33,329 bases of DNA from Gaiellales bacterium (GCA_038232215.1 JBBSIG010000001.1:1-33329), one strand, 5' to 3'. Counted from the first letter of the stretch, positions 1-18,418 are shown. Notes: a model not told the origin generated them from the letters alone. Numbers and translations: made by a program.

Positions 1-605
1 CGATCGCGCGTGACTTCGTCCTGCGCGGCGATCCTCAGCGGGCACACGCCGCGCTCCGGGACGCTGCGCGGTCCCTCGACGTTCGGGGCACGCACGTGCC
101 CGTGCTCGCGCCCGGGGACGAGCTGCTCGCAGTCTGTGTCACCGGCGCCCGCTCGGCGCCTGCTCCCAACGTCCAGTGGATCGCGGATGCCGCGACGATC
201 CTGAGGACGTCGTCGAACGAGATCGACTGGGACCGGCTCGTCCGGCTCGGCCGCGAGTGGGGCCGGACGCTCCGGCTCCGAGACTCGCTGGAGTACCTGG
301 GGCGCCTGCCGGGGGTCGAGGTGCCGGCCGAGACGGTGAGCCTGCTGGAGGCGTCTCCTCCGACCCGGCGCGAGAGGCTCGCCCACGCCTGGGCGGCCGG
401 CTCGCTGAACGCCCTCGGACGCCTGCCCGAGACGCTCGGGGAGCATCTCCTCGCAACAGCGGACAGGCCTCTCTCCGAGGCCCTTGCCGGCTTCGCGCGC
501 ATCCTGCGCGAGCGCTGGGGAGTTCGGCACGGCTGGCAGCTCCCTCTCGCCGGGGGGCGGCGTGCGGGCCGGATGCTCCTGGGCGGTCGGAGTCGATCCA
601 TCTGA
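1..605 (+). CDS. Nucleotidyltransferase-family protein (PF14907 / NTP_transf_5-like), C-terminal part. The 5' end lies outside the window.
   Basis: Frame 3 is open from base 3 to the TGA at 603-605, with no in-frame stop upstream of the tracked GTG at 96. The translation (...PGDELLAVCVTGARS...VQWIADAATIL...EIDWDRLVRLGREWG...LRDSLEYL...) resembles, from memory, the helical C-terminal half of the 'uncharacterised nucleotidyltransferase' family. The stop lies 4 nt before the next gene start. Confidence 0.6.
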   Translation, partial: IARDFVLRGDPQRAHAALRDAARSLDVRGTHVPVLAPGDELLAVCVTGARSAPAPNVQWIADAATILRTSSNEIDWDRLVRLGREWGRTLRLRDSLEYLGRLPGVEVPAETVSLLEASPPTRRERLAHAWAAGSLNALGRLPETLGEHLLATADRPLSEALAGFARILRERWGVRHGWQLPLAGGRRAGRMLLGGRSRSI

Positions 606-609
606 GAGG

Positions 610-1218
610 ATGATCCCCGTCTCCCTCACCTTCGACGACGGCCCCTCGACCTGGACGGAAGCCATCCTCGACCTCCTGGCCGCGCACGACGCCCACGCGA
701 CGTTCTTCGTCGTCGGCGGGAGCGCCGACCGGCGCCGCGACACACTGATGCGAATCGCGGCCGAAGGGCACGAGGTGGGGAACCACACGTGGTCGCATCC
801 GTCCCTCGCACGCGAGTGCGACGACGGACGGGTTCGGGACGAGCTCGAGCGCACGAACGAGCTCGTGGCCGACGTCCTAGGCGCGCCGCCGACTCTCTAT
901 CGCGCGCCTCACTACGACGTCGACGAGCGGGTCGACGCGATCGCCTCGCGGCTGGGGCTGACGCACGTTCGCGGCGACGTGGCTCCGCCGGACTGGCACG
1001 ATCGCTGGACTGCCGGTCTCACCGTGACGTTCGTCCTTCGGCAGATCCGACCGAACGGGATCATCGGCCTCCACGACGGCGTCCCGCCCGCGGAGGCCGG
1101 CGCTCGCAGCCGCCAGGCGACCGTGGACGCGGTCGCGGCGATCCTCCCGGGCCTCGAGGAGCGCGGACTCACATCCGTTCCCGCCTCGCGGCTCCTCGCA
1201 CGGACGGAGTCGATCTGA
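610..1218 (+). CDS. Polysaccharide deacetylase (NodB homology domain), no signal peptide
   Basis: ATG at 610 is preceded by GAGAGG (604-609). NodB motifs are visible: TFDDGP, HTWSH (His-x3-His), YRAPHY, IIGLHDG. The tracked start at 484 would overlap the upstream gene by 120 nt and adds Arg/Ala/Gly-rich junk, so 610 is preferred. Confidence 0.9.
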   Translation: MIPVSLTFDDGPSTWTEAILDLLAAHDAHATFFVVGGSADRRRDTLMRIAAEGHEVGNHTWSHPSLARECDDGRVRDELERTNELVADVLGAPPTLYRAPHYDVDERVDAIASRLGLTHVRGDVAPPDWHDRWTAGLTVTFVLRQIRPNGIIGLHDGVPPAEAGARSRQATVDAVAAILPGLEERGLTSVPASRLLARTESI

Positions 1219-1295
1219 TCGCCCGCGCTGAGCCCGCTCTCCGGCGCCGGAGCTACGCGCTTCGAGCTCGCGTCGATCTCGTTCGCTCGATCGGC

Positions 1296-2369
1296 GTGCG
1301 GCACGCCTGGCGGCGCCTGCGGGACGATCGGCGACACGGTCAGGCGCTCGTCGAGCGTCGGGTGCGCGTGCCGGACGAGATGTGGCGGGAGGGTGCTGCG
1401 CTGCTGGGGGCCGACGTGCGAGAGCTGGCGCCCACCCTGCTGGAGTTCCGGCTCGACGGGGCGACCGTCCGCATCAGGGGGCAGACGACTCCGTTCGCGG
1501 ATCCCGTCTCCACGGAGGTCGCCTCCGACAAGCCCCTCGCCTATCGGATTCTGTCGGAAGCCGGTCTTCCCGTTCCCGCGCACGCCGTGGTCGACGCCGG
1601 CGACCTCGGGGCGGCGGCCGCATTCCTCGAGCGTGTGTCGCCCCCGTGCATCGTCAAGCCGGTACGTGGCGGCGGCGGCGAGGGCATCACCGGCGAGGTA
1701 CGGACGACGGAGCAGCTTCGGCGCGCGCTCACGCGCGCCGGGCGATTCGATCTGCGCGTGCTCATCGAGCAGCAGCTGGAGGGAGACTCCTACAGGCTCC
1801 TGCTGCTGGACGGGAACGTGCTCGACGTGCTCCGCCGCTCGCGGCCGCAGATCACGGGCGACGGCATTGCCACGATCCAGGAGCTTGTCTTCGCCGAGTA
1901 CGCTCGCCGCATCGACGCCGGGGGGGCGGCGGGACTGAAGAAGTTCGTGGTCGATCTCGACTGCCTCTTCGCGCTCGAGCGCGCCGGCCGGCGGATCACC
2001 TCGGTTTTGCCCGCCGGGGAGGCGATCGTGATCAAGACCGCGACGAACTACAACGGCCCCGGCGAGAGCGAGACCGTCTTTCCCCCGATTCCCCGCGAGC
2101 TCGTCGAGCCGGCGCGGGTGGCCGCAGAGGCGCTCGGCGTCCGGCTGGCCGGTGTCGACGTCCTGACCACCGATCCAGGACGGCCGCTCTCGGAGAGCGG
2201 AGGAGTCGTCCTCGAGGTGAATCCGGTCCCCGGGTTGACACACCACTACAACGTGGCCGACCCGGCCCGCGCGACGCGCATCGCGGCGCCGATCCTCGAG
2301 GCGCTCTTGCAGCCGCAGGCGAGTGTCGACGGTGCGAGCCGCCGCGCGGTTCGCGCCGGACGACCGTGA
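1296..2369 (+). CDS. Stand-alone ATP-grasp ligase resembling the ATP-grasp (G) domain of cyanophycin synthetase
   Basis: Collinear with the CphA ATP-grasp region as I remember it: SDKPLAYRILSEAGLPVP, CIVKPVRGGGGEGI, RVLIEQQLEGDSYRLLLLDGNVLDVLRR, PQITGDGIATIQELV, IKTATNYNGPGES, LAGVDVLTTDPGRPL, VVLEVNPVPGLTHH. No Mur-ligase-like second half. Start is uncertain: GTG 1296 is the first canonical start after the upstream stop, ATG 1380 is an alternative, and the tracked 789 start lies inside the deacetylase gene. Confidence 0.85.
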   Translation: MRHAWRRLRDDRRHGQALVERRVRVPDEMWREGAALLGADVRELAPTLLEFRLDGATVRIRGQTTPFADPVSTEVASDKPLAYRILSEAGLPVPAHAVVDAGDLGAAAAFLERVSPPCIVKPVRGGGGEGITGEVRTTEQLRRALTRAGRFDLRVLIEQQLEGDSYRLLLLDGNVLDVLRRSRPQITGDGIATIQELVFAEYARRIDAGGAAGLKKFVVDLDCLFALERAGRRITSVLPAGEAIVIKTATNYNGPGESETVFPPIPRELVEPARVAAEALGVRLAGVDVLTTDPGRPLSESGGVVLEVNPVPGLTHHYNVADPARATRIAAPILEALLQPQASVDGASRRAVRAGRP

Positions 2370-3672
2370 CGTGACGCCCTTCGCGGCCGCGAAGGGCGTC
2401 TTCGTCGCAACCGGCGACGAGCGGCAGCAGATCGAGGGTCTCGGCTTCGAGCCGCGGGCGCTCATCCTCTGGTGGGCGCTCCAGACGGGCGAGGGGGTCG
2501 AGCGGGGCAACCGCGGCGGGCTCGGCTTCTCGGCGAGGGGATCGCGAAGCGCAGCCGTCGCCTGGGCCTCGGACGACCAGGCCGCGCCCACGCGAACTGC
2601 GCGCTGGGGAGAGGAGGCGGCCCTCGTCGGGCTCGACGATGCAGCCGCCCCCGCTCCGGCGCTCCGAGCCGAGCTCTCCTGCTTCCATCCGGACGGCTTC
2701 GCGCTCGAGTGGTCCGTTCGCCCGGCCTCTGCCTGGACCGTCCACTACCTCGCGCTCGGTGGAGACGACCTCACCGGCTCACGCGTCGGCTGGCTCACGA
2801 CGCCGGTCTCGCCGGGGCGCCAGCGCGTTGCCGGTGTCGGCCTCCGGCCGGACGTCGTCCTCGTCGCGCCCACCGGCCTCGAGCATCTGGCGACGCCCAC
2901 GCGCGGGCTGTCGGCGGGCATCGGCGCCGCGGGCGCCCGGCGCAGGCAGGCGGGGGTCGGCTTCGCCTCCCGCAACGGGGCCGAGGCCGGCGACGTGGCC
3001 GGCGGGCAGCGCGGCGACGCAGCCGTCGTGGCCGTCTCGGGCCGGGACGAGTTCGCAGCGCTCGCGACTGTCGCCTCGCTCGATCCCGACGGGCTCACGA
3101 TCGACTGGGCAGACGTCTGGCCGACGCCCAGGCGGATCCCTTACCTGGCGCTCGCGGGAGTTCGGTGCATGGTCGGGACGGACTTCTCGCCGAGCTCGCC
3201 CGGCGCGGGTCGCACGCGCGTCGGCTTCCGTCCACAGGCACTGCTCCTCTTCACGTGGGGACTCGGCGCCTCCTCGCAGCCCACGGACATCGGCCGGCTC
3301 AGCATCGGAGGCGCCTCCTCTCCCGGCGCGAGCGGTTGCGCGAGCTGGGACGACCGGGACGTCGAAGCCCGCCCCACGAGCACGCACGTGTGCTCGTCCA
3401 CGGGAGACGTGATCGTCGTGACGAACACGCAGACGGGCGGCGTGCACGCCGCCGCCTCGCTGCGCTCGCTCGACTCCGACGGCTTCACGCTCGACTGGAG
3501 CCGGTCGGACGGGCTACGCCGGCAGTTCGTCTACGTCGCGCTCGCGGCTCCGGGCCGCCCGGGGCTGAACGAGATCGTCCGCAGGTCGGGCACGCGGATC
3601 GCGTCGGCCGTGAAGAGGGTGCGTCAGCGAATCGCGGAGCGCCAGCGCTCGGCGTCGTCCCGCGGTGCGTAG
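2323..3672 (+). CDS. Hypothetical protein built from three tandem ~125-aa repeats. No family recognised, no signal peptide or TM segment.
   Basis: GTG at 2323 (alternative GTG at 2371, 1 nt after the upstream TGA at 2367-2369). This is the only frame here with protein-like composition (W, F, Y, D, E present) and G/C at third positions. The internal triplication at the protein level argues strongly that this frame is translated. Confidence 0.7.
   Translation: MSTVRAAARFAPDDRDVTPFAAAKGVFVATGDERQQIEGLGFEPRALILWWALQTGEGVERGNRGGLGFSARGSRSAAVAWASDDQAAPTRTARWGEEAALVGLDDAAAPAPALRAELSCFHPDGFALEWSVRPASAWTVHYLALGGDDLTGSRVGWLTTPVSPGRQRVAGVGLRPDVVLVAPTGLEHLATPTRGLSAGIGAAGARRRQAGVGFASRNGAEAGDVAGGQRGDAAVVAVSGRDEFAALATVASLDPDGLTIDWADVWPTPRRIPYLALAGVRCMVGTDFSPSSPGAGRTRVGFRPQALLLFTWGLGASSQPTDIGRLSIGGASSPGASGCASWDDRDVEARPTSTHVCSSTGDVIVVTNTQTGGVHAAASLRSLDSDGFTLDWSRSDGLRRQFVYVALAAPGRPGLNEIVRRSGTRIASAVKRVRQRIAERQRSASSRGA
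2392..3546 (+). repeat. Three intragenic tandem domain repeats (aa 24-146, 153-279, 282-408 of the 2323-3672 product)
   Basis: Three anchors recur at nearly constant spacing. Anchor 1: GLGFEPRALILW / GVGLRPDVVLVA / RVGFRPQALLLF. Anchor 2: HPDGFALEW / DPDGLTIDW / DSDGFTLDW. Anchor 3: HYLALGG / PYLALAG / VYVALAA. Anchor 1 to anchor 2 is 84, 84 and 86 residues by my count. The repeats are diverged at the DNA level, so this is an old protein-level triplication. Confidence 0.8.
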
Positions 3673-4484
3673 CCGAGCGATCTTCGCGCCTCCTCGAGGT
3701 CCCAGAGGCGCCAGGTGTTCGCCGAGACGCCGTAGAAGACGCCGTAGCGAAGCGACGGCGGCGCCTCCAGGCAGCAGCTCACGAGATGCACGAGGTCTCC
3801 GTGGGTGAGGAGCGTGGCCAGGTGGCGCGCGCTCGCCGGGCGATTCTCGCGGTTGACCGTGCCGATCCGCAGGCAGACGACCGAGAGGCCGTGCTCGTCG
3901 GCGTAGAGTCGCCCCGCTGCCTCGCCGAAGGCCTTGCCGAGGCCGTACGCTCCGTCCGGCCGGATCGGCGCGTCCACGCCGAGCCGCGGGAAGCTCGCGG
4001 GATCGAGCTTGCCGTAGTCGCCGGCGACGACGGATGCATACGGCTCGTCGCGCTCGTACATGCCGACGACGTGGTTGGAGCTTGCGAAGACGAGGCGGCG
4101 GACTCCCGCGAGGCGTGCAGCCTCGAGCGCGTTTCGCGTTGCCGGCAGGTTGTTCTCGTACACCGACTCCCAGGAGGCGGCAGCGTCCGGGTCGGCGGCC
4201 AGGTCGACGACTGCGTCCACCCCCTCGAACGCGGGCCGGATCTCGTCGAGCCTCTTCATGTCGGCGACGACGTCCGTCCCGGAACCGCGGCTCGCGTCGA
4301 GGCCCCGGACGGCGTAGCGATCGCTCAGCCCGGCGCGCAGGATCCCGCCGATCAGGCCGCCGGCCCCGGTGATCAGGATGCGCTGCTTTCCGTCTGCTGC
4401 GAGTGGTCGGACGACCGCCCGCTCTCTAGAAGCGGGACGACGCAGCTGCCGGAAACGCCCGAGGACGTGCACCCGAGCCATCAT
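3624..4484 (-). CDS. NAD-dependent SDR (epimerase/dehydratase fold), uronate-dehydrogenase (Udh)-like
   Basis: Rossmann motif ILITGAGGLIGG, catalytic YGLGK, plus Udh-like blocks FASSNHVVGMY, IRPDGAYGLGKAFGE, CLRIGT, GVSANTWRLWDL, LGYAPRDDAE. Start is taken at the ATG-ATG pair (4484/4481). The tracked GTG at 4526 would leave only 18 bp to divergent lysS. GTG 4472 is also possible. Confidence 0.85.
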   Translation of the reverse strand: MMARVHVLGRFRQLRRPASRERAVVRPLAADGKQRILITGAGGLIGGILRAGLSDRYAVRGLDASRGSGTDVVADMKRLDEIRPAFEGVDAVVDLAADPDAAASWESVYENNLPATRNALEAARLAGVRRLVFASSNHVVGMYERDEPYASVVAGDYGKLDPASFPRLGVDAPIRPDGAYGLGKAFGEAAGRLYADEHGLSVVCLRIGTVNRENRPASARHLATLLTHGDLVHLVSCCLEAPPSLRYGVFYGVSANTWRLWDLEEARRSLGYAPRDDAERWRSAIR

Positions 4485-4544
4485 GCCGCAGGTGCGCGAG
4501 ACGGGCACGGGGAGCGCCGGGGCCACTCACTAGACTCGCTCGCC

Positions 4545-5918
4545 ATGCTTCCGAAGCGATTCGGGGATCGTGACGACGTCGCCTCCGTCCGACTCGAGGC
4601 GGGGGGGCTCGAGCCTGGGCAGGAGGCAGAGACGCGCCGTCGCCTCGCGGGACGCGTGCTCGCCCGGCGCGGTCACGGGCAGCTCGTGTTCCTCGACCTC
4701 GTCGACCGCTCGGGGCGGATCCAGCTGCTCTGCGACATGAGCCGCTCGGGACCCGTCGAGGTCGACCTCGGTGACGTGATCGGTGTGACCGGAGCCCCGG
4801 CGCGAACACGGAGGGGTGAGCCCTCGCTCGCCGTTGACGAGCTCGTGCTGCTCGCGAAGATCCGGCAGCCGCTGCCGGACACGTTCCACGGCCTCACCGA
4901 CACGGAGGCGCGCTACCGCCGCCGCTACCTCGACCTGATGATGAACCCCGAGTCGAGGGCGGACGCGCTCCTCCGCTCCCGGATGGTGAGCGCGATCAGG
5001 CGCCGGCTCGACGCGGAGGGCTTCGTCGAGGTCGAGACGCCGATCCTGCAGCCGCGCTACGGCGGCGCCTTCGCGGAGCCGTTCGTCACCCACCACAACG
5101 AGCTGGACCGCGACCTCTACCTGCGCATCGCGACCGAGCTCTACCTGAAGCGGCTCATCGTGGGCGGCCTCGAGCGCGTGTACGAGATCGGCAAGGACTT
5201 CCGCAACGAGAGCGTGTCGTACAAGCACCAGCCCGAGTTCACGATGCTCGAGTGGTACGAGGCATTTGCCGACTACCGGGACACGATGGTGCGGATCGAG
5301 GAGCTCGTGGGAGCGGTGACGGCGGAGGTGACCGGCGGGACGACCGTCGGCTTTCGCGGGCACGAGGTCGACCTGGCCCCGCCCTGGCGGCGCGTCGAGC
5401 TCGTCGACGCGCTCGCCGAGCACGGGCTCTGGACGCGCGACCCCGACGAGCTCCGCGCCCGCTTGACCGAGCGAGGGGTAGACACGCAGCACGACGGGAC
5501 GTGGGCCCAGCTCGTCGACCATGCGCTCGGCCACTTCGTCGAGCCGGCGCTGATCGAGCCGACGATCCTGCACGATTATCCCGTCGAGCTCTCGCCGTTC
5601 GCGCGGACGACCGACGACGATCCCACGATGGTCGAGCGCTTCGAGTACTTCGTGGGCGGGATGGAGCTCGGCAACGCCTTCACGGAGCTCAACGACTCGG
5701 TGGAGCAGGCCGAGCGCTTCGCGCTGCAGGCGGGCGAGCGGCAGGCGGGCGACCCGCTCGCCGAGGGCGGCGACCCTGACTACGTCGAGGCGCTCTCGTA
5801 CGGGATGCCGCCGACCGGCGGGATCGGGCTCGGGATCGACCGGTTGGCGATGGTGCTAGCCGGGCGCGAATCCATCCGCGACGTGATCCTGTTTCCCGCG
5901 CTCCGCGAGCGGCGGTAG
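4545..5918 (+). CDS. lysS: Lysine--tRNA ligase, class II
   Basis: ATG at 4545. OB-fold N-terminus (GRVLARRGHGQLVFLDLVDRSGRIQLL) and class II motifs are present: FVEVETPIL, KDFRNESVSYKHQPEFTMLEWY, YGMPPTGGIGLGIDRLAMVLAG. The tracked 1148-aa ORF (2472-5918) is this gene plus an open upstream frame of Arg/Pro/Ala junk. Confidence 0.95.
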   Translation: MLPKRFGDRDDVASVRLEAGGLEPGQEAETRRRLAGRVLARRGHGQLVFLDLVDRSGRIQLLCDMSRSGPVEVDLGDVIGVTGAPARTRRGEPSLAVDELVLLAKIRQPLPDTFHGLTDTEARYRRRYLDLMMNPESRADALLRSRMVSAIRRRLDAEGFVEVETPILQPRYGGAFAEPFVTHHNELDRDLYLRIATELYLKRLIVGGLERVYEIGKDFRNESVSYKHQPEFTMLEWYEAFADYRDTMVRIEELVGAVTAEVTGGTTVGFRGHEVDLAPPWRRVELVDALAEHGLWTRDPDELRARLTERGVDTQHDGTWAQLVDHALGHFVEPALIEPTILHDYPVELSPFARTTDDDPTMVERFEYFVGGMELGNAFTELNDSVEQAERFALQAGERQAGDPLAEGGDPDYVEALSYGMPPTGGIGLGIDRLAMVLAGRESIRDVILFPALRERR

Positions 5919-5920
5919 CC

Positions 5921-7933
5921 GTGAGGACGGCGCTCGCGGCGGTCCCCGCGCGCCTGCGCGAGGCCCCCGGTCTCGTGCCCGGTCTCGTCGCCCTGAGCGT
6001 CTTCTTCGTCTGGGCGTTCCACGGCGGCGGCTACGCGGCCACGGTCTGGTACCCAGGAGCGCTCCTGCTGCTCGCCTTGCTCGGAGTGGTCGCGCTCGCC
6101 TTCCGAGGGCTGGTGCGCGACCTTCCTCGCCCCGTCCTCCTCGCCTCGGCCTTCCTCTCGGCCTTCACGGTTTGGAGCTACCTGTCCATCTTCTGGAGCG
6201 GCGTCAAGGGCGACGCCTGGGACGGGGCCAATCGCACCCTCCTCTACCTCACGGTGTACGCCCTCTTCGCCTGGCTCCCGTGGCGGCCCTGGGCCGCGGG
6301 GGCCGCGCTCGGAGCGCTCTCGCTCGCCGCCACGGCGACGGGCGCGATCGTCATCTGGCAGGCGAGCACGTCGTCCGACCCGTCCACCTTCTTCATCGGC
6401 GCCCGCCTCGCGGACCCGCTCGGCTACGCGAATGCTCTCTGCGCCCTCTTCCTGATGGCGCTCTGGCCGGCCCTCTACCTCGCCTCCCGGCGGGGACTCC
6501 CGGCGCTCCTGCGCGGGGTCTTCCTCGCCGCGGCGGGGATTCTCGTCGAGCTCGCGCTCCTCTGCCAGAGCCGCGGCTCGCTCTTCGCCGCGCCGGTCGT
6601 CGTCGCGTTGTACCTCGCGGTCGTCCCCGGCCGAGTGCGCTCCGTGCTCGCGCTGGGCTCCGTGGCGGCTGTCGCCGGCCTCGCGCGCGGCACCATGCTC
6701 GCGGTCTACCCCGCCGCTCAGGACGGAGATCTCCACGCCGCGCTCCTCGACGCACGCCGCACCCTCGGGCTCTCGGCACTCGTGCTGCTCGGAATCGGCA
6801 CGGCCGTCGCGCTGGTCGATCGGCCCCGCCTGATCACGGAGAGCCTCGCGCGGCGGGCCGGCTGGGCCCTAGCCGCGATCGGCGTGGTCGCCGTGCTCGC
6901 GGGGTCGGCCCTGCTCCTGACCCTCGAGAGGCCCACCGATCGGGTCGCACAGGGGTGGCGGGAGTTCACCGCCGGCCAGACGAGCAACCCGGAGGGCTCC
7001 TACCTCACCGGCGGCCTCGGCAGCAACCGGTACGACTTCTGGCGGGTGGCGGTGAAGGAAGTTGTCCGGGCGCCGGTGGTCGGCGTCGGCGTCGACAACT
7101 TCGCGATCGACTACCTGCGCGAGCGCAGGAGCCTCGAGGAGCCGCTCTACCCGCACAGCCTCGAGCTCCGCGTGCTGGCGCAGACGGGAATCGTGGGCGC
7201 CGCCCTGTTCCTCGGGTTCCTGCTCCTCGCGCTCGCCGCCGTCTGGCGGGCCGGCGTGCGAAGCGGCCCCGGCGCCGGTCTCGCCGCCACCGCCGTCGTC
7301 GTCTTCGGCTACTGGCTCGTGCACGGGTCCGTCGACTGGTTCTGGGAGGCGCCGGTGCTCGGCGGGATCGCGTTCGCGGCCCTCGGCCTCGCCGCGCGGG
7401 CGCGCGGAGCCGACCCCGAGCGCTCCCGGGCTCGCTCGCCGCGCCCGGGAAACCGGCTCCTCCTCGGCGCTCTCGTCGCGGCCGTGGCGGTCGCCGGTGT
7501 CTGTTCGTACGCCTTGCCCTGGCTGAGCGCCGAGTACGTGAGCCAGGCGGCCGAGTCCTGGCCGGCCGATCCCGACGAGGCCTTCGACCGCCTCGACCGC
7601 GCCCGTCGCCTGAACCCGCTCAGCGATCAGCCGGACCTGATCGCCGGCGCGATCGCGGCTCGGCTCGACGATCGAGCGCGGATGCGGCGATCGTTCCGGC
7701 GAGCGCTCGTGCGGAATCCATGGAGCTGGTACGCTCGCCTCGAGCTCGCCGTCGTCGAGTCCAGCTCGGGCAGACGCGAGCCGGCATTACGGCAACTGAA
7801 CGCCGCGCGTAGGCTGGATCCGCTGGAGCCCACCATCCAGGCCGCGATCCGCGAGGTCCACGCAGGGAGGCAGCTCTCTCAGCGCGAGCTCGAGCGGACG
7901 CTCCTCGAGCGCGCAGCCGCGCGCGAGAAGTAA
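5921..7933 (+). CDS. O-antigen ligase/polymerase family (Wzy_C) polytopic membrane protein with C-terminal TPR-like repeats
   Basis: GTG at 5921, 2 nt after the lysS stop. About 12 hydrophobic spans. Wzy_C-type loop: SNRYDFWRVAVKEVVRAPVVGVGVDNFAIDYL...YPHSLELRVLAQTGIVGAALF. After the last TM comes a soluble tail with repeated ...A(R)RLNP / AARRLDP helical-pair repeats (TPR-like). Confidence 0.85.
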   Translation: MRTALAAVPARLREAPGLVPGLVALSVFFVWAFHGGGYAATVWYPGALLLLALLGVVALAFRGLVRDLPRPVLLASAFLSAFTVWSYLSIFWSGVKGDAWDGANRTLLYLTVYALFAWLPWRPWAAGAALGALSLAATATGAIVIWQASTSSDPSTFFIGARLADPLGYANALCALFLMALWPALYLASRRGLPALLRGVFLAAAGILVELALLCQSRGSLFAAPVVVALYLAVVPGRVRSVLALGSVAAVAGLARGTMLAVYPAAQDGDLHAALLDARRTLGLSALVLLGIGTAVALVDRPRLITESLARRAGWALAAIGVVAVLAGSALLLTLERPTDRVAQGWREFTAGQTSNPEGSYLTGGLGSNRYDFWRVAVKEVVRAPVVGVGVDNFAIDYLRERRSLEEPLYPHSLELRVLAQTGIVGAALFLGFLLLALAAVWRAGVRSGPGAGLAATAVVVFGYWLVHGSVDWFWEAPVLGGIAFAALGLAARARGADPERSRARSPRPGNRLLLGALVAAVAVAGVCSYALPWLSAEYVSQAAESWPADPDEAFDRLDRARRLNPLSDQPDLIAGAIAARLDDRARMRRSFRRALVRNPWSWYARLELAVVESSSGRREPALRQLNAARRLDPLEPTIQAAIREVHAGRQLSQRELERTLLERAAAREK

Positions 7934-7952
7934 AGAGTCTTTGAGCGTGCCG

Positions 7953-7981
7953 TTGACAGGGTCGGGCGGCGCACGTACTGT
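7953..7981 (+). promoter_or_regulatory. Sigma-70-type promoter candidate: TTGACA (7953-7958), 17-nt spacer, TACTGT (7976-7981)
   Basis: Read directly from the 108-bp, locally less GC-rich intergenic region upstream of the LPXTG gene. The -35 is a perfect consensus and the spacer is the optimal 17 nt. A stem-loop (cggaag-tagggg-cttccg, 7988-8005, extendable to 7985-8010 with a 2-nt bulge) lies in the predicted leader. Confidence 0.5.
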
Positions 7982-8030
7982 TTCGAACGGAAGTAGGGGC
8001 TTCCGCGTTCAGAACCTGCGGCGTTCGTCT

Positions 8031-8036
8031 AGGAGG
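8031..8036 (+). promoter_or_regulatory. Shine-Dalgarno AGGAGG, 5 nt upstream of GTG 8042
   Basis: Sequence tctAGGAGGaaactGTG. This is the strongest SD match I see in the window. Confidence 0.8.
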
Positions 8037-8041
8037 AAACT

Positions 8042-8401
8042 GTGGCAAAAGTGATGACAGGGCTTGCGGTGATGGTCACCGCGCTCGCGCTCGCCTCGAC
8101 CGCGCTTGCGGGCAACGGGGGAGTGACGAAGGGATACAAGGGACAGGGCGCAAGCGTTCAGAGCCAGATCTCGAGCGGCGTCGAGGGCAAGAGCGGCGTC
8201 AAGGGTCGCGTGGTCAGCCGCACCGCTCCAGCGGCGGCGAACCGGGCGACTCCGGCGAAGGCGACCCCTCAGACGCAGGGCGCTGCGACGATCGGCAAGC
8301 TGCCGTTCACGGGTCAGGACCTCGGTCTGCTCGTGGCCGGCGGGATGCTGCTGTTGATCGTCGGGGCGGGCTTCCGGCGGCTCAGCCGCGAGAACGCCTA
8401 G
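8042..8401 (+). CDS. Small secreted LPXTG cell-wall-anchored low-complexity protein (119 aa)
   Basis: Sec signal MAKVMTGLAVMVTALALASTALA/GNG. The ~65-aa mature part is Gly/Lys/Ser-rich, then Ala/Pro/Thr-rich (SRTAPAAANRATPAKATPQTQGAAT). LPFTG lies at nt 8300-8314, followed by hydrophobic DLGLLVAGGMLLLIVGAGF and the basic tail RRLSRENA, which together form a classical sortase sorting signal. It has a strong SD and promoter. ATG 8054 is an alternative start. Confidence 0.85.
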   Translation: MAKVMTGLAVMVTALALASTALAGNGGVTKGYKGQGASVQSQISSGVEGKSGVKGRVVSRTAPAAANRATPAKATPQTQGAATIGKLPFTGQDLGLLVAGGMLLLIVGAGFRRLSRENA

Positions 8402-8500
8402 CACTCGGCTAGCAACAACCACGCAGCACGCCGCAGGCCCAGTCCGTCCGGCGTCCCCGAACGGGTCAAGTTCGACCAGAGGACTGTCGAAGAGAGCTGC

Positions 8501-9979
8501 ATGAGCACATCGCCCGCCCGCTTCGAAGTATCTTCCGCCCCGGACCTCCGGGGCGGAAGGCGTGGATGGGTTCGATTCGCTCCGGGCGTCAGCTGGACGG
8601 CCACGTGCCTCGCGGTCGACGGGCTCATGCTCGCGGCGGGTGCGGCAACGGCGGCGTTCGGCTCGCGCGCGGCGGGCGTACCCTCGCCCTCGCTCGGCTG
8701 GTTGATCCTCTTCCCGCCGCTCGTCGTCTCGCTGCTGGCGGCGCGCGGGGCGTACACCCCGCGGCTTCGCCTGCAGATCCTGGACGACCTCCGTCTGGCC
8801 GTGGTCGCCACCTCCGTCGCGACGACCGCGCTCATCTCGCTGCGCGTCCTCGCGACCGGAGACCCGAACATCGCCGCCCAGTCGGTGCGGCAGTGGCTGT
8901 TCGCCACCGCGTACCTGGCCGCCGGCCGCACCGGGCTCCTCCTCGCCCAGGTGCGCGCGCGCAGGCGCGGGGAGGACGTGCAGCCGACGCTGATCATCGG
9001 AGCGGGGAAGATCGGTCAGCTCACCGCGCAGCGACTCGCCGAGCAGCCCGAGCTCGGGCTGAAGCCGGTCGGCTTCCTCGACAAGGAGCCGCTCGACGAC
9101 GGCCGCAACACCGCGGGCCTGCCCGTCCTCGGAGCCAGCTGGGACCTGACGGACGTCATCTCCAGGTACGGCGTCAAGCACGTGATCCTCGCCTTCTCGA
9201 CCGCCCCGCACGCGGTCATGCTCGACATCGTGCGCCGCTGCGAGGCGCTCGGAGTGGCGCTCTCGTCCGTTCCGCGGCTGTTCGAGAAGGTGCAGAGGGA
9301 CGTCACGGTCGAGCACCTGGGCGGCCTGCCGCTCATCTCGCTCAGATCGGCAGACCCCAAGGGGTGGAAGTTCGCCATCAAGTACGGACTCGACCGCGTC
9401 ATCGCCGCCGTCTCGCTCCTGCTGGCGCTGCCCGTGCTGCTCGTGACGGCCCTAGCGGTGTGGATCTCCGTCGGTCGCCCGATCCTGTTCAGCCAGGAGC
9501 GGGTGGGGCGCGACGGACGCATGTTCTCGATCCTGAAGTTCCGCTCCATGAAGCACGCTCCCCGCAGCGAGGAGGCGTTCGACCCCTCGGTGCTCCTGCC
9601 CGCGGGTCGGGCGCCCGGCGGCGTCGAGGGAGCGGACCGCCGGACGCGCACGGGAGCGATTCTCAGGAAGACGTCGATCGACGAGCTGCCGCAGCTCCTG
9701 AACGTGCTCAAGGGCGAGATGAGCCTCATCGGCCCCAGGCCGGAGCGGCCCGAGTTCGTGGAGCTCTTCGAGCAGCAGATCTACCGCTACCAGGAGCGGC
9801 ACCGCGTGAAGTCCGGGATCACCGGCTGGGCCCAGATCCACGGCCTGCGCGGCAACACCTCTCTCGCGGACCGAGTCGAGTGGGACAACTACTACATTCA
9901 GAACTGGTCGTTCTGGCTCGACGTCAAGATCGTGCTGATGACCTTCGTCGCCATCTTCCGTTCCAAGGAAGTCGAGTAA
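8501..9979 (+). CDS. Undecaprenyl-phosphate hexose-1-phosphate transferase (WbaP/WcaJ-type polyprenyl glycosylphosphotransferase), the initiating enzyme
   Basis: Four to five N-terminal TM spans, a Rossmann-like middle (TLIIGAGKIGQL...VKHVILAF), and a C-terminal bacterial sugar transferase domain: GRPILFSQERVGRDGRMFSILKFRSM, IDELPQLLNVLKGEMSLIGPRP, KSGITGWAQI, DNYYIQNWSFWLDVKI. ATG at 8501 with GAAGAGAG upstream. Confidence 0.95.
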   Translation: MSTSPARFEVSSAPDLRGGRRGWVRFAPGVSWTATCLAVDGLMLAAGAATAAFGSRAAGVPSPSLGWLILFPPLVVSLLAARGAYTPRLRLQILDDLRLAVVATSVATTALISLRVLATGDPNIAAQSVRQWLFATAYLAAGRTGLLLAQVRARRRGEDVQPTLIIGAGKIGQLTAQRLAEQPELGLKPVGFLDKEPLDDGRNTAGLPVLGASWDLTDVISRYGVKHVILAFSTAPHAVMLDIVRRCEALGVALSSVPRLFEKVQRDVTVEHLGGLPLISLRSADPKGWKFAIKYGLDRVIAAVSLLLALPVLLVTALAVWISVGRPILFSQERVGRDGRMFSILKFRSMKHAPRSEEAFDPSVLLPAGRAPGGVEGADRRTRTGAILRKTSIDELPQLLNVLKGEMSLIGPRPERPEFVELFEQQIYRYQERHRVKSGITGWAQIHGLRGNTSLADRVEWDNYYIQNWSFWLDVKIVLMTFVAIFRSKEVE

Positions 9980-10098
9980 CGGGAGCTCCGCTCGCCGTCC
10001 GAGAGGTACGCTCGTCCGGGGCGCTGCTCCGGGCGTCGAGAGTGACGTAGGTCACCCGCGCAGGAAGCGCCCCGGACCGCCCAACCCTCAGGAGAAAG

Positions 10099-11322
10099 AT
10101 GCGTCTCTCTCTCGACCGGCCGGTACAGCTCGCGAAGCGGCTACGGCGGAGGTTCTATCTCGCCGACTACGACGACGAGAACCTCCGCCTCCGCTGGCTG
10201 CGAGCCGCGCCGGAGGCTCCGTACACCGAGCGAGTCTTCGACGTCCGGCCCGACCCCGCGAGCGTCTCTTCGGTGCTCGTGTTCAAGCCCGACGAGATCG
10301 GCGATGCCGTCTACTCGCTTCCCGCTGTCGTCGAGCTGCGGCGCTGGTTCCCGAAGGCGAGGGTGTATCTGCTCTGCCAGCGGCTCACCCGCAGCCTGTT
10401 CGAGCGCAGCGGGCTCTTCGACGAGATCGTCGCGGTGGACCCGAGGACGAGACTCTCCCGACCCACGTTCTCGGTCGAGAAGGCGCTGGCGGGCTTCTCA
10501 GTCCGGTCGTTCGACGTGTCGATCTTCCTTCGCACCTATCAGGCGTACTTCGACCAGTTCCTGCGCATCCCGAGCGAGATCAAGGTTCATCCGATCGACC
10601 CGCTGATGCGCTCGGACTCGGTGTATCGAGCGCACGTCTCGCTCTGGGCCGAGGAACGGCGCCACCAGTCGCTGCAGCTCCTCGAGATCGTGTCGCGCCT
10701 CACCGGACGCACGTACACGTTCGACGACGTGAGCTTTCCCGACTTCGAGTGGACGGACGACGACCGCTCGGCTCCCGAGCGCGCGTTCGAGGGCGCCGCG
10801 CCGCCCCGGTATGTCGTCGTGCATCCGTTCGCGAAGCACGAGACGCGTCAGTACCCGCTCGAGTACTGGGTGCGCCTGCTCTCGGATCTACGCCGGCGGC
10901 TGGCTGCGACCTGGGTGATCGTCGGCGGCCCGGACGACCCCCGGCTCGAGAACCTGCCCGGCGTCGTGCAGACCCAGGGGCGCCTGTCCCTCTCCCAGAG
11001 CGGATACCTCGTCTCGCGGGCGAGTGCGTTCGTCGGCGTCCTGAGCGGCCCGGCGCACTGGGCCGGAGCGCTGGGGGTGCCTACGGTCACGATCATGAGC
11101 GGACACTCCATGCCCGTGGAGTGGGCGCCGCTCGGGCGCTCGCACGTTATCCGCGCGGATGTGCCGTGCGCGCCGTGTCACCAGCCCACGTGTCCCGTGT
11201 ACGGGCTCGCCTGCCTGCGGGAGCTGCGTCCGGAGCGGATCGCACCGGAGATCGAGCGATTCCTCGAGTCCGCGCTTACGGGGTCCGAAGCGGGAAAGGC
11301 TCGAGCCGCGGCGCCGGGTTGA
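10099..11322 (+). CDS. Glycosyltransferase family 9 (heptosyltransferase-like)
   Basis: ATG at 10099 with AGGAG at 10090-10094. GT9 N-terminal signature SVLVFKPDEIGDAVYSLPAVVELRRWFPKARVYLL. C-terminal half: YVVVHPFAK...RQYPLEYW, IVGGPDD, SGPAHWAGALGVPTVTI. Confidence 0.85.
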   Translation: MRLSLDRPVQLAKRLRRRFYLADYDDENLRLRWLRAAPEAPYTERVFDVRPDPASVSSVLVFKPDEIGDAVYSLPAVVELRRWFPKARVYLLCQRLTRSLFERSGLFDEIVAVDPRTRLSRPTFSVEKALAGFSVRSFDVSIFLRTYQAYFDQFLRIPSEIKVHPIDPLMRSDSVYRAHVSLWAEERRHQSLQLLEIVSRLTGRTYTFDDVSFPDFEWTDDDRSAPERAFEGAAPPRYVVVHPFAKHETRQYPLEYWVRLLSDLRRRLAATWVIVGGPDDPRLENLPGVVQTQGRLSLSQSGYLVSRASAFVGVLSGPAHWAGALGVPTVTIMSGHSMPVEWAPLGRSHVIRADVPCAPCHQPTCPVYGLACLRELRPERIAPEIERFLESALTGSEAGKARAAAPG

Positions 11323-11353
11323 TCGTCGCCTGAGTCGTCTGCGCCGAGCCTGA

Positions 11354-12088
11354 TCAGGAAGTCGGGTCGCTGCGGCGGTCCGGCTCGAAGCCCTCGAGGA
11401 CGAGCGACGGAGTGGTCTCGGTGAGCTGGAGACGGGCTTCGACGCCGTACCGCTCCTCGATCAGGGCAGCCGCTTCCCGCAGGTGGGGGCGGCGGTGCAG
11501 GCTTCCGTGTGCGTCGCTGGCTACCAGGTCGCCGCGTGCCGTCTCGAGCAGACGCCAGGCGGCGGCCTCGGCGCCGTCGCCCCAGCGGCCGAGCAGGCTC
11601 GGCGCGACGACCTGCATCAAAGCGCCGTCGCGGCGAGCTGCGTCGACGATGTTCGGCTCGCGCTGGATGGCTCGCGAGCGTTCCGGATGCGCGAAGATCG
11701 GTACGAGACCGAGCTCCGCGAGCCGGGCGCCCGCGACGTCCAGGAACCCGGCCGGCGTCAGAGGCTGGACCTCGACGAGCAGGTATCTCCCGGCGATCGC
11801 CCTCGTCTCGAGATCCTCGTCCGAGGCGGACACCACGCTGTCCGGGCCCATCTCGGCCCCGAGCCGCGTCCGGAGCGCGATGCCTCTCGCTGCCAGCTCG
11901 GCGTCGAGCGCCTCGAGCGCCGCGAGCGCCCGCGCGTGGTTGGTCGTAAAGCGCCGTGAGTAATGCGGTGTGCAGACGACCGCGGTGATGCCGTCACGGA
12001 CGAGGGCGCTCGCGAGCGCAACCGCCTCGACGCTCGTCGCCGGACCGTCGTCCAGCTGCGGCACGAGGTGACAGTGGGTGTCGATCAA
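11354..12088 (-). CDS. CpsB/YwqE-type PHP-domain protein-tyrosine phosphatase
   Basis: LIDTHCHLVPQLDDGP at the N-terminus (HxH metal motif), TPHY, FAHPERS, ASDAHG. The only start that keeps the HxH motif is TTG at 12088, which overlaps the upstream TGA (TTGA, 12085-12088). The tracked 665-aa ORF is an upstream open-frame artefact. Confidence 0.9.
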   Translation of the reverse strand: MIDTHCHLVPQLDDGPATSVEAVALASALVRDGITAVVCTPHYSRRFTTNHARALAALEALDAELAARGIALRTRLGAEMGPDSVVSASDEDLETRAIAGRYLLVEVQPLTPAGFLDVAGARLAELGLVPIFAHPERSRAIQREPNIVDAARRDGALMQVVAPSLLGRWGDGAEAAAWRLLETARGDLVASDAHGSLHRRPHLREAAALIEERYGVEARLQLTETTPSLVLEGFEPDRRSDPTS

Positions 12089-13272
12089 GTGGCCGAGCTT
12101 GCGCTCAGCGGCTTGCGCGCTCCACGGGGTGCCCACGCCGCCTGGTACACGCGCTCGTGGTCGCTCAACCACCGCTCGCCGTCGTCGTCCGACGCGACGG
12201 GCTCGACCGCTTCGACGGCGCGTTGCCAAGCTGCCGGCTCGCGGAGCGCTCGAACTCGCTCCACGATCGCGGCGACGGTGGGCTCCACCGCGATCACGCC
12301 GGGGTGTGCGCCGATCGCCTCTCTGAGACCGCCCCGGGGCGAGATGAGCACCGGTCTGCCCGCGGCGAGCCACTCGAGCACCGTGTACGGAGGGCCTCCT
12401 GGCTCCTTCCAGAGCGAAGGGACGATCCCGAGGTCGCAACGCTCGAAGAAGGAGCGCTTCGCCGCTCCGCTCACCTGGCCCTCGTATCGAACCTCGGATC
12501 GGCGGGCAGCGGCCTCCACCCGCTCGCGGAGAAGCCCGTCCCCCGCGACGTGAAGCGTGCAGCCCGCTGCGGCGATGGAAGCTGCGGCGTCGAGCAGGAC
12601 GTTGACGCCCTTGGTCACGCCGAGCGACCCGATGAACCCGATCGTCGCGAGCTCGCGCGAAGGTGGAGAGAGCGGCCGGTCGAACGGCGAGCTGAACGCG
12701 TGCTTGATCACGTGGAAGGAGGCGCTCGGGAAAAACGACGAGTGCGTCTCCGCGATAGAGCGCGAGACTGCGATCACCTGGCCGACCGCACCGCTCCAGC
12801 GGCCGAGCCGGCGTCTCCTCAGTCCGCAGAGCAGCGGGTGGGGCCGGCAGGGAGTTCCGTCCGGCTGCAGCAGGGTCACGCGCGGGCAGAGCAGCTGGTA
12901 GTCGTGCAGCGTGTGCACGACCGGGACTCCGAGGCGTCGGCAGACCTCCCACACCGCCGTGCTGAGTCCCGGCAGGTTGTTCGAGTGCACCAGGTCGGGA
13001 CGTTGTGAGGCGATCGCTTCCGCCAGCCGCCGCGAGGGACGAGCGAGGACGTCGCCCGCATGGTTCTGCAGTCGCCGAACGGGACTCTCGCGCCAGTCGC
13101 GGCCGTGGAGGACGACTGACGCCGCCTCGGGGTCGCCGACCGGAAACGCGCTCAACACCGAGACGTCGTAGCCGCGGGCGCGCAATCCGTGGGCCAGGTC
13201 GGCGACGTAGCGCTCGGCGCCGCCGAGTGACGTATCGGCTCCGTGCGCGTTGACGAGGAGGAGGCGCTTCAA
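12085..13272 (-). CDS. Glycosyltransferase family 4 (GT-B fold)
   Basis: LKRLLLVNAHGADTSLGGAERYV... N-terminal domain (HSNN, HTLHDY). C-terminal domain: IGFIGSLGVTKGV, LHVAGDG, IVPSLWKEPGGPPYTVLEWLAAGRPVL. The only plausible start is TTG at 13272, overlapping the upstream TGA (TTGA, 13269-13272). Confidence 0.9.
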   Translation of the reverse strand: MKRLLLVNAHGADTSLGGAERYVADLAHGLRARGYDVSVLSAFPVGDPEAASVVLHGRDWRESPVRRLQNHAGDVLARPSRRLAEAIASQRPDLVHSNNLPGLSTAVWEVCRRLGVPVVHTLHDYQLLCPRVTLLQPDGTPCRPHPLLCGLRRRRLGRWSGAVGQVIAVSRSIAETHSSFFPSASFHVIKHAFSSPFDRPLSPPSRELATIGFIGSLGVTKGVNVLLDAAASIAAAGCTLHVAGDGLLRERVEAAARRSEVRYEGQVSGAAKRSFFERCDLGIVPSLWKEPGGPPYTVLEWLAAGRPVLISPRGGLREAIGAHPGVIAVEPTVAAIVERVRALREPAAWQRAVEAVEPVASDDDGERWLSDHERVYQAAWAPRGARKPLSASSAT

Positions 13273-14726
13273 GCGGCCGTCGGCGATGGCTCGTGCTCTG
13301 CCCGCGGAGGCAGAGCCGGGCGCTCCGGAGCGGTGGCGGCAAGGCCGACACCCACTACGAGCATGCCCAGGAAGGCCGTTGGAAAACCGGTGAACGACGC
13401 GCGCGTGACGGCGTCCAGGAGCACGACCGCCAACAGGCCGAGCACGACCCAGCCCGCCTGCTGCCTGCGCGCAGTGGCCCCTCGGGCGAGCACGATCAGG
13501 CGGCCGAGCAGCGAGAGCTGGACGATCAGGCCGACGAAGCCCACGTCTGCGATCGTTGCGAAGTAGCCGGAGTCGACGGCCGCGAGGTTGGGCTGGTTCG
13601 GCGCGAGCCGGGTCTGGCTGACGCCCACCCTCGCACGCTCGGCCGCGGTGCCGACGACCCCGACGCCCCGGCCGAATGCCCAGTCCGAGGAGTCGCCCAG
13701 GGCGACTTTCCAGGATTGCGTGCGCCCGTTCACCGTCAGGTACGTCGACGAGCTGCCCTGGAACGTTCGGGTCTCGGTTCCGCCCGAGGAGGCGATCAGC
13801 GTCGCCACGCCGCCGAAGAGCGCGGCGGCGAGTAGGAGCACGGCGGTCGCCGTCCGGCCCTGACGGGCGAGCCAGAGCCCGATCAGCGCGAGGCCGATCA
13901 GCAGCGCGGTGCGCACGAATGACACGAGGAGACCGAAGGCGAGGAGCCCGAGCGCAAGCGCGACGAAGAGACCGCGGTTCCTCCAGAGGAGCACCGCCGC
14001 GATGCCGAAGAGCAGGAAAGCCGCGTAGTCGAACGGCTCGTCGAAGGTCCCGAAGCTGCGGAGATACGGCCCGATCGTTCTCACCTGGGCGCCGTATGCG
14101 TAGCCGAGGTCGACGAGGCGGGCACCGCCAAGGACCTGCTGCAAGAGGCCGTACAGTGCAGCGCCGCAAGCTGTCGCCGTGAGCGAGGCCACCGCCCAGC
14201 GGAACGTCCGGCGGGGATCGTCGAGCGAGAGGCCGACGAGGAGCAGCAGGAGCGGCTCGGACACGAGCCGAACCCCGTGGAACCAGCCGGGGCCGAAGCG
14301 GCTCCCACCCGTGACGCCCGCGCCGATGTCGAGCACGTAGAGGCCGATCAGGAGCAGGACCAGCACGATGAGCGGACGATCGGCCCGCCAGCCCAGGCGG
14401 GCGCCTCGCCGTTGCACGAGCAGCACTCCGGCTCCCAGGGCGGCGGCGATCGTGACGACGTCCTTCGTCGCCCCGAGCTGAGGAGACACGAGTACCTTGA
14501 GCGTGGGAAGTGCGGCGAAGTACGGGATCGTGAGCGCCACGGCGACGTGGGGCACGACGATGTACCCGACGAGGACCAGCAAGAACGTGCACAGGCCAAG
14601 CAGGATTCCGAGGGTGAGCGTGCCTCCTGCTCGCGTCGACCACACTGCTGTGAGCAGCGTGAGGGCGGCACCGACCGCAGCCGTCGCGGCGTCGGCCCCG
14701 AGCACGGCGGGACGGAGCCGGCCCAT
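13269..14726 (-). CDS. O-antigen polymerase/ligase family (Wzy_C) membrane protein, a candidate Wzy polymerase
   Basis: ATG at 14726. About 10-12 hydrophobic spans with a large loop NGRTQSWKVALGDSSDWAFGRGVGVVGTAAE...AAVDSGYFATIADVGFVGL, typical of the Wzy_C family. Confidence 0.8.
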   Translation of the reverse strand: MGRLRPAVLGADAATAAVGAALTLLTAVWSTRAGGTLTLGILLGLCTFLLVLVGYIVVPHVAVALTIPYFAALPTLKVLVSPQLGATKDVVTIAAALGAGVLLVQRRGARLGWRADRPLIVLVLLLIGLYVLDIGAGVTGGSRFGPGWFHGVRLVSEPLLLLLVGLSLDDPRRTFRWAVASLTATACGAALYGLLQQVLGGARLVDLGYAYGAQVRTIGPYLRSFGTFDEPFDYAAFLLFGIAAVLLWRNRGLFVALALGLLAFGLLVSFVRTALLIGLALIGLWLARQGRTATAVLLLAAALFGGVATLIASSGGTETRTFQGSSSTYLTVNGRTQSWKVALGDSSDWAFGRGVGVVGTAAERARVGVSQTRLAPNQPNLAAVDSGYFATIADVGFVGLIVQLSLLGRLIVLARGATARRQQAGWVVLGLLAVVLLDAVTRASFTGFPTAFLGMLVVGVGLAATAPERPALPPRAEHEPSPTAA

Positions 14727-18403: not shown

Positions 18404-18418
18404 CTCCTCTGCCCGAGA

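Follow-up and report, generated by a model that had tools for sequence, protein, structure and literature searches.

A conserved gene core of a Wzy_C/TPR membrane enzyme, a minimal surface-tethered peptide and an initiating phosphoglycosyl transferase in Thermoleophilia suggests a dedicated polysaccharide stalk

We analysed a 33-kb stretch of DNA (33,329 nucleotides, one strand; hereafter the window) from a Gaiellales bacterium (GCA_038232215.1 JBBSIG010000001.1:1-33329), with flanks and relatives from the class Thermoleophilia. The gene in question (8042-8401, +) starts with GTG and encodes a surface peptide precursor of 119 residues, which we refer to as the mini protein or mini peptide. It lies between the gene of a polytopic membrane enzyme of the Wzy_C family with a C-terminal tetratricopeptide repeat (TPR) tail (5921-7933, +), a candidate glycan ligase or O-oligosaccharyltransferase (O-OTase), and that of the initiating polyprenyl-phosphate glycosylphosphotransferase (PGT; 8501-9979, +). 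Judged by gene order in related genomes, Wzy_C/TPR enzyme, mini protein and PGT, in this order, are a conserved three-gene core across the class Thermoleophilia, and by profile searches the mini proteins are an undescribed family of surface-tethered peptides. The conserved arrangement suggests, but does not prove, that the locus contains a dedicated polysaccharide stalk.

The open reading frame (ORF) at 8042-8401 is a real coding gene under purifying selection. Its GC content by codon position is 0.68/0.56/0.85, like that of the neighbouring genes. With respect to a homologue of 85% identity, differences numbered 9/7/27 at the three codon positions, with 22 synonymous against 14 non-synonymous codon changes. 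The precursor begins with a Sec signal peptide read from the sequence (8042-8110; residues 1-23, MAKVMTGLAVMVTALALASTALA, then G), which has a basic n-region, a hydrophobic core and a cleavage site after ALA. This signal is kept in all homologues, which start with the same MAK or MK residues. The mature part, 67 residues of low complexity up to LPFT, contains the conserved N-terminal motif KGYKGQGASVQSQ (8129-8167; family consensus GY-x-G-x2-G-x-VQ) and an Ala/Pro/Thr-rich segment (8216-8290; residues 59-83). The sorting motif LPFTG (8300-8314; residues 87-91) is followed by Q-D, a 20-residue hydrophobic span and a basic tail ending in RRLSRENA (8315-8398 for the span and the tail, FRRLSRENA). 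Both the Sec signal and the series of LPXTG motif, hydrophobic span and positively charged tail that mark a sortase substrate are thus present, as the initial annotation had described. Pfam models including Gram_pos_anchor gave no match to the window protein at E<=0.01. In NCBIfam only models of other small sortase-substrate families were matched, and these scored 16-18 bits, below their cut-offs of 47-95.

Concerning the gene neighbourhood, we collected 80 species-level genome loci from metagenome-assembled genomes of Gaiellales and Solirubrobacterales with the Wzy_C/TPR enzyme as anchor; these are the best-scoring 80 of at least 563 matches. A mini gene was found beside the Wzy_C/TPR gene in 75 of the 80 genomes. 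In 58 loci it was matched by the hidden Markov model of the mini family, nearly always directly downstream of the enzyme and on the same strand, and 17 more loci contained a diverged mini gene in a gap of 700-900 bp before the PGT gene. The position of the PGT gene could be assessed in 77 loci, and in 60 of them it directly followed the mini gene. Where the genes are rearranged, the mini gene remains with one of its two partners, enzyme or PGT. The order is mini-PGT-enzyme in L020, a mini-PGT pair is divergent from the enzyme in L044, and in L024, L027 and L029 enzyme and mini gene are together with the PGT gene divergent.

Distant members of the family occupy comparable positions. Member P0270 follows a gene ending in TPRs, and P0190 lies between a divergent Wzy_C/TPR gene of 32% identity and a PGT gene (L087). 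P0150 (L085) precedes a PGT gene with no adjacent Wzy_C gene. In addition, a second small LPFTG family that looks unrelated to the first (82-residue precursor with two Cys; mature part SSSSTCQAYNPQLCS...LPFT) was found in Solirubrobacteraceae directly after a Wzy_C/TPR paralogue of 672 residues and 39% identity (L091 7956-8210, also L090). The gene order there is PGT, ATP-grasp, deacetylase, GT4, Wzy_C/TPR, mini. The adjacency, the rearrangements and the distant pairings together support well a functional coupling of enzyme, mini protein and PGT. The co-occurrence with Wzy_C/TPR and PGT genes that had been proposed as a check on the initial annotation therefore holds, also at enzyme identities of 32-39%. 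A chance ORF, or a chance co-location of a real one, was rejected because of the substitution pattern by codon position and the synteny in 75 of 80 genomes.

A word-indexed search with the mini protein returned only three relatives (85%, 40% and 39% identity), each on a contig of about 1 kb that also carried the C-terminus of an upstream Wzy_C/TPR gene or the N-terminus of a downstream PGT gene. When GTDB genomes were scanned with a degenerate pattern derived from a four-sequence alignment of mini proteins, 35 pattern matches were obtained and 0 were confirmed, and anchoring on the Wzy_C/TPR enzyme was used instead. An exhaustive profile search recovered 713 clusters of mini proteins at E<=1e-3, nearly all of 85-130 residues and matched end to end. 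No Pfam or NCBIfam model exists for the family, and the source records label its members 'hypothetical protein'. A further profile, made of the LPFTGxD-transmembrane-RR signal alone and aimed at large proteins sharing this signal, returned only proteins of 74 residues or fewer from Gaiellaceae and Solirubrobacteraceae; the short-only outcome is probably a bias of the pre-filter and we draw no conclusion from it. Many of these short matches are N-terminally truncated calls of mini genes, so that public annotations seem often to mis-call mini genes or to overlook them.

Conserved over the family are the signal peptide, the N-terminal motif, and the C-terminal membrane span with its RR tail. A diverse alignment of 20 sequences shows no variation at Y32, G34 and Q40. 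Of 209 members, 131 have the strict pattern Y.G.{3,6}Q, and most of the others have a variant spacing. We propose KGYKGQGASVQSQ as a putative TPR-docking site, glycan-attachment site or both. The linker that separates this motif from the sorting signal differs greatly from member to member. In the 80-residue mini proteins of Gaiellaceae it is near zero, leaving a predicted mature peptide, QQPTQSGYGGTGGNIQGDVEGGGSLPFT, of about 28 residues. The Ala/Pro/Thr segment of the window protein is a lineage-specific insert: it is absent from P0003, P0004, P0125, the 80-residue Gaiellaceae proteins and most family members. Since it is missing even from homologues of about 40% identity, it cannot be the conserved acceptor, and the earlier proposal that it serves as a PglL-type acceptor is not sustained.

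The sorting signal divides the family. Exact LPFTG was found in 143 of the 153 top representatives, and D or E at +2 likewise in 143; members of the Gaiellales type keep the motif. Syntenic orthologues from Solirubrobacterales, however, have LG(L/I)S(G/A/S)-x-D at this position and not LPXTG, so that sortase anchoring, predicted for the window protein, cannot be extended to the family as a whole. The LG(L/I)S(G/A/S)-x-D sequence may derive from a sortase signal that has decayed, or it may direct another kind of processing. Mini proteins of this type are 160-210 residues long, with the N-terminal motif LLSGYGGPG(E/Q)G(N/S)QAILGS, a linker of about 100 residues rich in Gly/Ser/Ala/Thr, and LG(L/I)S(G/A/S)-x-D(L/V) instead of LPFTGxD before the membrane span. 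They occur in L042, L045-L049, L055-L057 and L061-L084 (for example L046 5374-5931 and L062 12130-12744). LPFTG-type paralogues are also present in Solirubrobacterales. Extra divergent LPFTG proteins with a mucin-like linker rich in Pro/Thr/Ser are encoded in L050 (8552-9061, -), L053 (8287-8979, -) and L054 (8461-9195, -), upstream of the Wzy_C/TPR gene, and an LGLSG-type mini gene lies downstream, giving two paralogous candidate carriers per locus.

The enzyme encoded at 5921-7933 was recognized by Pfam as Wzy_C (3e-12, 47 bits against a cut-off of 31.7). Its TPR tail was not called by Pfam at E<=0.01. Comparison of the family profile with TPR proteins of the PDB gave an E-value of 4e-17 over residues 547-633, and the AlphaFold2 model (pLDDT 83, pTM 0.86) has a tail of helical repeats. 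More than 2000 homologues were found under the names 'O-antigen ligase' and 'TPR repeat protein', and TPR matches in Pfam are common among them. Homologue names point to Gaiellaceae (Thermoleophilia, Actinomycetota). The neighbour on the other side of the mini gene contains CoA_binding_3 and Bac_transf domains (TIGR03025, 381 bits) and is a PGT of the WbaP/WcaJ type; both flanking assignments of the initial annotation are thereby confirmed. Topology prediction gave 15 transmembrane helices for the enzyme with the N-terminus inside. The short loops contain 18 Lys and Arg residues on the 'inside' against 2 on the 'outside'. The Wzy_C loop (335-415) is thereby assigned to the outside, as is the TPR tail (532-670). 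Catalytic loop and tail are thus both predicted to face away from the cytoplasm, in agreement with the extracytoplasmic tail claimed before. R370, R375 and H412 in the loop are invariant in the family alignment, as is R218. A Foldseek search returned the ligase WaaL (7TPG) as the top match, and the tail resembled the peptide-binding TPR domains of OGT, CHIP and SGT. A direct sequence search of the membrane domain against the PDB gave no meaningful match; only the fold search led to WaaL.

Taking into account that Wzy_C covers several activities, we considered which role suits the enzyme. A Wzy polymerase would be a protein whose sequence tracks the chemistry of the repeat unit and which is the sole Wzy-like protein of its locus, and neither applies here. 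The enzyme is 39-51% identical over all 80 loci, and the sets of glycosyltransferases around it vary between loci (the window compared with L089 and L077). Conservation of the enzyme while the glycosyltransferases vary fits a ligase with a constant acceptor and a constant reducing-end sugar, and not a repeat-unit polymerase. From these comparisons, with the fold match to WaaL, the invariant Arg and His residues of the outer loop and the second Wzy_C-like gene in the window and L089, a ligase rather than a polymerase is the most likely role. The features expected of an O-OTase were found as well, namely a Wzy_C domain with an outer loop containing Arg and His, a C-terminal TPR domain on the same side, and an adjacent gene for a secreted candidate acceptor.

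The upstream region of the mini gene had been credited with the best promoter and Shine-Dalgarno sequence of the window, and this was borne out for the promoter and not for the uniqueness of the ribosome-binding site. The promoter-like sequence TTGACA-17-TACTGT (7953-7981, +) is the sole match to TTGACA-N16-18-TANNNT in the window, where 0.02 are expected. A stricter scan based on TATAAT found no promoter at all in positions 1-20000. AGGAGG (8031-8036, +) is located 5 nt before the GTG start. Since the window has 10 instances of AGGAGG followed by a start codon, the site is good, not unique. GGAGG-like sites also precede the mini genes of relatives. Of 59 related loci, 16 have the TTGACA...TACTGT motif ahead of their mini gene, where the background rate is 0.0035 per 220 nt. 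The regions upstream of the mini gene in L006, L007, L009, L021, L023, L026, L028 and L041 were also considered. The intergenic region (7934-8041) is 96% identical to its counterpart in L004 (420-527) and the mini coding sequence about 88%, so the promoter and leader region is better conserved than the coding sequence in this pair. The strong, conserved promoter would fit a role of the mini peptide as a stoichiometric substrate. We found no terminator on the + strand from 8401 to 8501, and mini and PGT genes probably share a transcript. The distance from the TTGACA...TACTGT motif to the start codon is 176-192 nt in several Gaiellaceae loci, whose leaders would accordingly measure about 150 nt. 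A riboswitch or other leader element upstream of the window mini gene was considered and rejected (folding z-score -0.46; no Rfam family anywhere in the window).

These results raise the possibility that the mini peptide is the dedicated glycan acceptor of the Wzy_C/TPR ligase, recognized through its conserved motif and, in the LPFTG forms, anchored by sortase. This is the reading we favour, tentatively and with a confidence that falls a little short of even. The PGT would start the glycan on undecaprenyl phosphate, and the variable glycosyltransferases, flippase, second Wzy-like polymerase and Wzz/kinase of each locus would build and polymerise it. The conserved Wzy_C/TPR enzyme would act as a ligase, not a polymerase, in the manner of WaaL, PglL or WsfB. 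Its outward TPR domain would dock the GY-x-G...Q motif of the secreted mini peptide, and its catalytic loop would move the glycan linked to undecaprenyl pyrophosphate (Und-PP) onto the peptide. The best candidate site would be the invariant Tyr32, as in the Tyr-linked glycans of S-layer proteins, with neighbouring Ser or Thr as the alternative; Ser/Thr-rich linkers, where present, could add sites. In LPFTG members sortase would join the glycopeptide to peptidoglycan, so that the glycan would be linked to the wall via a short peptide stalk and not by a LytR-CpsA-Psr (LCP) enzyme. In Solirubrobacterales members without LPXTG the carrier would stay anchored in the membrane. A more specific form of this proposal strikes us as rather doubtful. 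Here the mini peptide would be a 28-70-residue 'bacterial proteoglycan core' to which a Wzy-dependent heteropolysaccharide is linked through Tyr and which sortase joins to peptidoglycan in replacement of LCP, the LG(L/I)SG forms being membrane-anchored for non-covalent display.

Several points weigh against the acceptor proposal. Glycosylation of the mini peptide is something we infer indirectly, from sequence and gene context. Wzy_C polymerases, ligases and O-OTases cannot be separated by sequence, and the NCBIfam models gave the enzyme 18 bits for TfpM (cut-off 600) and 22 bits for PEP_O_lig_1 (cut-off 188). The choice of Tyr as the attachment site is a guess, given that the shortest mature peptides (about 28 residues) contain very few Ser or Thr. 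Five of the 80 loci keep the TPR tail and have no mini gene within 10 kb. The loss of LPXTG in a whole order means that wall anchoring is not essential to the role of the family. Domain searches of the major ORFs of the window found neither sortase nor LCP domains, the latter as the initial annotation had noted, and LCP was also missing from the gene tables of L085, L089 and L091. An LCP enzyme may nevertheless be encoded elsewhere in the genome, outside the window. The sequence flanking the 80 loci, about 1.7 Mb, yielded no sortase either, a TLxTC scan of all ORFs giving 3 junk-frame matches, and our search of the literature on sortase in Thermoleophilia yielded nothing relevant. Finally, the sampling of loci stops short of more distant relatives.

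Alternatively, the mini peptide might be a non-glycosylated partner or foothold that binds the TPR domain or the polymer and tethers or organises the assembly site at the wall or membrane. Synteny suits a binding partner as well as a substrate, and TPR domains are peptide-binding modules; a Wzy interaction or foothold role has indeed been proposed by the authors who studied SspA, a small sortase-anchored protein of Actinoplanes missouriensis (PMC13293333). The scarcity of hydroxyl residues in the shortest peptides also suits a partner, but the Tyr is invariant. Moreover, promoter and ribosome-binding site are strong and conserved, which suggests a peptide made in bulk as a stoichiometric component and not a regulatory partner, and the enzyme, conserved regardless of repeat-unit chemistry in the presence of another polymerase candidate, would be left without an acceptor. 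We regard this alternative as unlikely.

The enzyme could also be a polymerase, or a ligase to a non-protein acceptor such as lipid or peptidoglycan. The mini peptide would then be an abundant surface-coat peptide of its own, linked to the polysaccharide operon by shared regulation only. Adjacency in 75 of 80 genomes, the pairing of a second mini family with a Wzy_C/TPR gene and the retention at 32% enzyme identity are hard to explain on these terms, which would suit better the mini-PGT pair of L085 without an adjacent Wzy_C/TPR gene and the five loci with the enzyme and no nearby mini gene. Wzy_C does include polymerases, but polymerases normally vary with the repeat unit and the Wzy_C/TPR enzyme is conserved. 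Altogether, we consider this quite improbable.

Least probable of the three is the version of the initial annotation, in which the mini protein would exist only as a sortase-anchored stalk, O-glycosylated in its Ala/Pro/Thr segment (residues 59-83) by a PglL-type reaction and replacing LCP: many members do have low-complexity Ser/Thr/Pro/Gly linkers (Pro/Thr-rich in L050, L053 and L054, Gly/Ser-rich in Solirubrobacterales) and no LCP is encoded in the window, but the segment is missing from close homologues, LPXTG is not universal in the family, and the absence of LCP was seen for the window only.

The remainder of the window has the composition of a Wzx/Wzy-type polysaccharide locus, with GT4 and GT2 glycosyltransferases, two flippases and deacetylases. 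A second polytopic Wzy-like membrane protein (13269-14726, -) is a candidate repeat-unit polymerase. The initial annotation had named it as a second Wzy_C protein that could be the true polymerase; it keeps its candidacy, but its Wzy_C identity is only sub-threshold (E 0.0027, 18 bits). Homology between it and the Wzy_C/TPR family was considered and not established, as the profile comparison aligned a 16-column motif only, with a probability of 0.35. A second Wzy_C-like gene is present in both the window and L089, where the copy adjoins a flippase gene. Domain matches further identified a Wzz-like chain-length determinant fused to a BY-kinase (14823-16337, -) and a CpsB-type phosphotyrosine phosphatase (11354-12130, -; Pfam CpsB_CapC, 7e-37).

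A heptose-nucleotide pathway and two GT9 heptosyltransferases are encoded at 19456-22065 (-), 10099-11322 (+) and 22061-23218 (-). The pathway consists of a PfkB kinase, a GmhB-like HAD phosphatase and an SIS isomerase fused to a cytidylyltransferase-like domain. With this pathway and the GT9 enzymes, the glycan of the window probably contains heptose. A secreted enzyme of the GH5 (cellulase) family (16448-18403, +) has, in the window copy, a confirmed F5/8 type C lectin domain, and a GH5 enzyme also lies beside the three-gene core in L018, L024, L027, L082 and L089; depolymerisation or trimming of the locus polysaccharide is a possible function. Lysyl-tRNA synthetase (4560-5918, +) is encoded directly upstream of the Wzy_C/TPR gene, likewise in L034, L040, L060 and L089, so that the conserved core begins at a housekeeping boundary. 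Two long ORFs with a coding signature (2323-3672, +, 449 residues; 25529-26944, -, 471 residues) had no Pfam match at E<=0.001.

We compared the system with those in which related elements have been described. The membrane domain of the enzyme is structurally closest to WaaL (7TPG), which transfers Und-PP-linked glycan on the outer face of the membrane. WaaL has 12 transmembrane helices and no TPR tail, whereas the window enzyme has 15 and a TPR tail. The acceptor of WaaL is lipid A-core, which is absent from monoderm actinobacteria.

Among Gram-positive bacteria, the O-OTases WsaB (Geobacillus stearothermophilus) and WsfB (Paenibacillus alvei) contain Wzy_C, and WsfB, like PglL, has C-terminal TPRs (PMC2943079). 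In P. alvei a polysaccharide of 22-25 repeats is linked to a tyrosine of the S-layer protein (PMC2943079). The Wzy_C enzymes of these systems occur with a Bac_transf-type PGT (WsaP, WsfP) and near the acceptor gene, an arrangement like that of the window with its candidate acceptor, and they move long polysaccharide en bloc to protein. The likeness is one of architecture, not of membership at the sequence level, and there are clear differences. The acceptor of WsaB and WsfB is a large self-assembling S-layer protein attached non-covalently via SLH domains, whereas the mini peptide is a peptide of 28-67 residues without a fold, tethered by LPFTG or a membrane span. Glycan export relies on an ABC transporter in those systems, and the locus here is of the Wzx/Wzy/Wzz type.

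Genes of PglL-type O-OTases commonly adjoin the acceptor gene (PMC3643930). The pairing of a Wzy_C enzyme gene with a small acceptor gene in the same orientation is shared with PglL/PilO (TfpO)/PglS/TfpM (PMC3643930). A periplasmic TPR domain together with an adjacent acceptor gene is found in TfpW, whose gene lies beside pilA (bioRxiv 10.1101/2020.04.19.049825), but TfpW itself is a GT-C enzyme. All of these are Gram-negative systems with pilin acceptors, unlike the mini protein, which is not a pilin. In PEP-CTERM/exosortase systems (O-ligase-like TIGR03097, TPR protein PrsT), C-terminally sorted proteins are tied to exopolysaccharide loci (PMC1569441). They use PEP and exosortase where the window has LPFTG, a motif of sortase substrates, and the window enzyme matched both PEP_O_lig_1 and PrsT weakly, far below the cut-offs.

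Two actinobacterial proteins come close to the mini protein. GspA of Actinomyces oris is an LPXTG protein to which a glycopolymer is added by the LCP enzyme of an adjacent gene before anchoring by the housekeeping sortase (PMC6381275). The GspA-LcpA-SrtA system thus resembles the window in its LPXTG protein and adjacent modifying gene, but uses an LCP phosphotransferase in place of a Wzy_C/TPR enzyme, and the GspA monomer runs at the 25-kDa marker on SDS-PAGE, unlike the mini peptide. SspA, with a precursor of 191 residues, is sortase-anchored, intrinsically disordered and required for a Wzx/Wzy-dependent matrix (PMC13293333). Compared by description only, it is like the mini protein a small sortase-type disordered protein tied to a Wzx/Wzy polysaccharide; a covalent glycan link and an adjacent Wzy_C/TPR gene are not reported for it (PMC13293333). 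GspA and SspA are precedents for the idea of such a carrier, of which the initial annotation had known no description. In the searchable literature we came across no pairing of a Wzy_C/TPR enzyme with a tethered peptide that is minimal and has no other function. The system of the window is made of known elements in a new arrangement, and a dedicated protein O-glycosylation of this kind is plausible.

Monoderm bacteria are known to fix polysaccharide to the envelope by two routes: LCP enzymes ligate it directly to peptidoglycan, or S-layer proteins are glycosylated. To our knowledge, the LCP phosphotransferase route is used by all Gram-positives that have been studied. If the acceptor proposal is true, a third route would exist, fixing polysaccharide to the monoderm envelope via a sortase-anchored peptide. 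The mini peptide would then be the smallest known dedicated acceptor of O-glycosylation, with a conserved tag of about 15 residues, which would make it attractive for glycoengineering and bioconjugates. The proposal would also provide a concrete molecular hypothesis for the requirement of SspA in a Wzy-dependent matrix. It gives a testable function to a family of 713 clusters and to the widespread, uncharacterised Wzy_C/TPR enzymes of abundant, poorly studied soil Actinomycetota. Whatever the mechanism, the three-gene core can serve as a marker when these loci are annotated.

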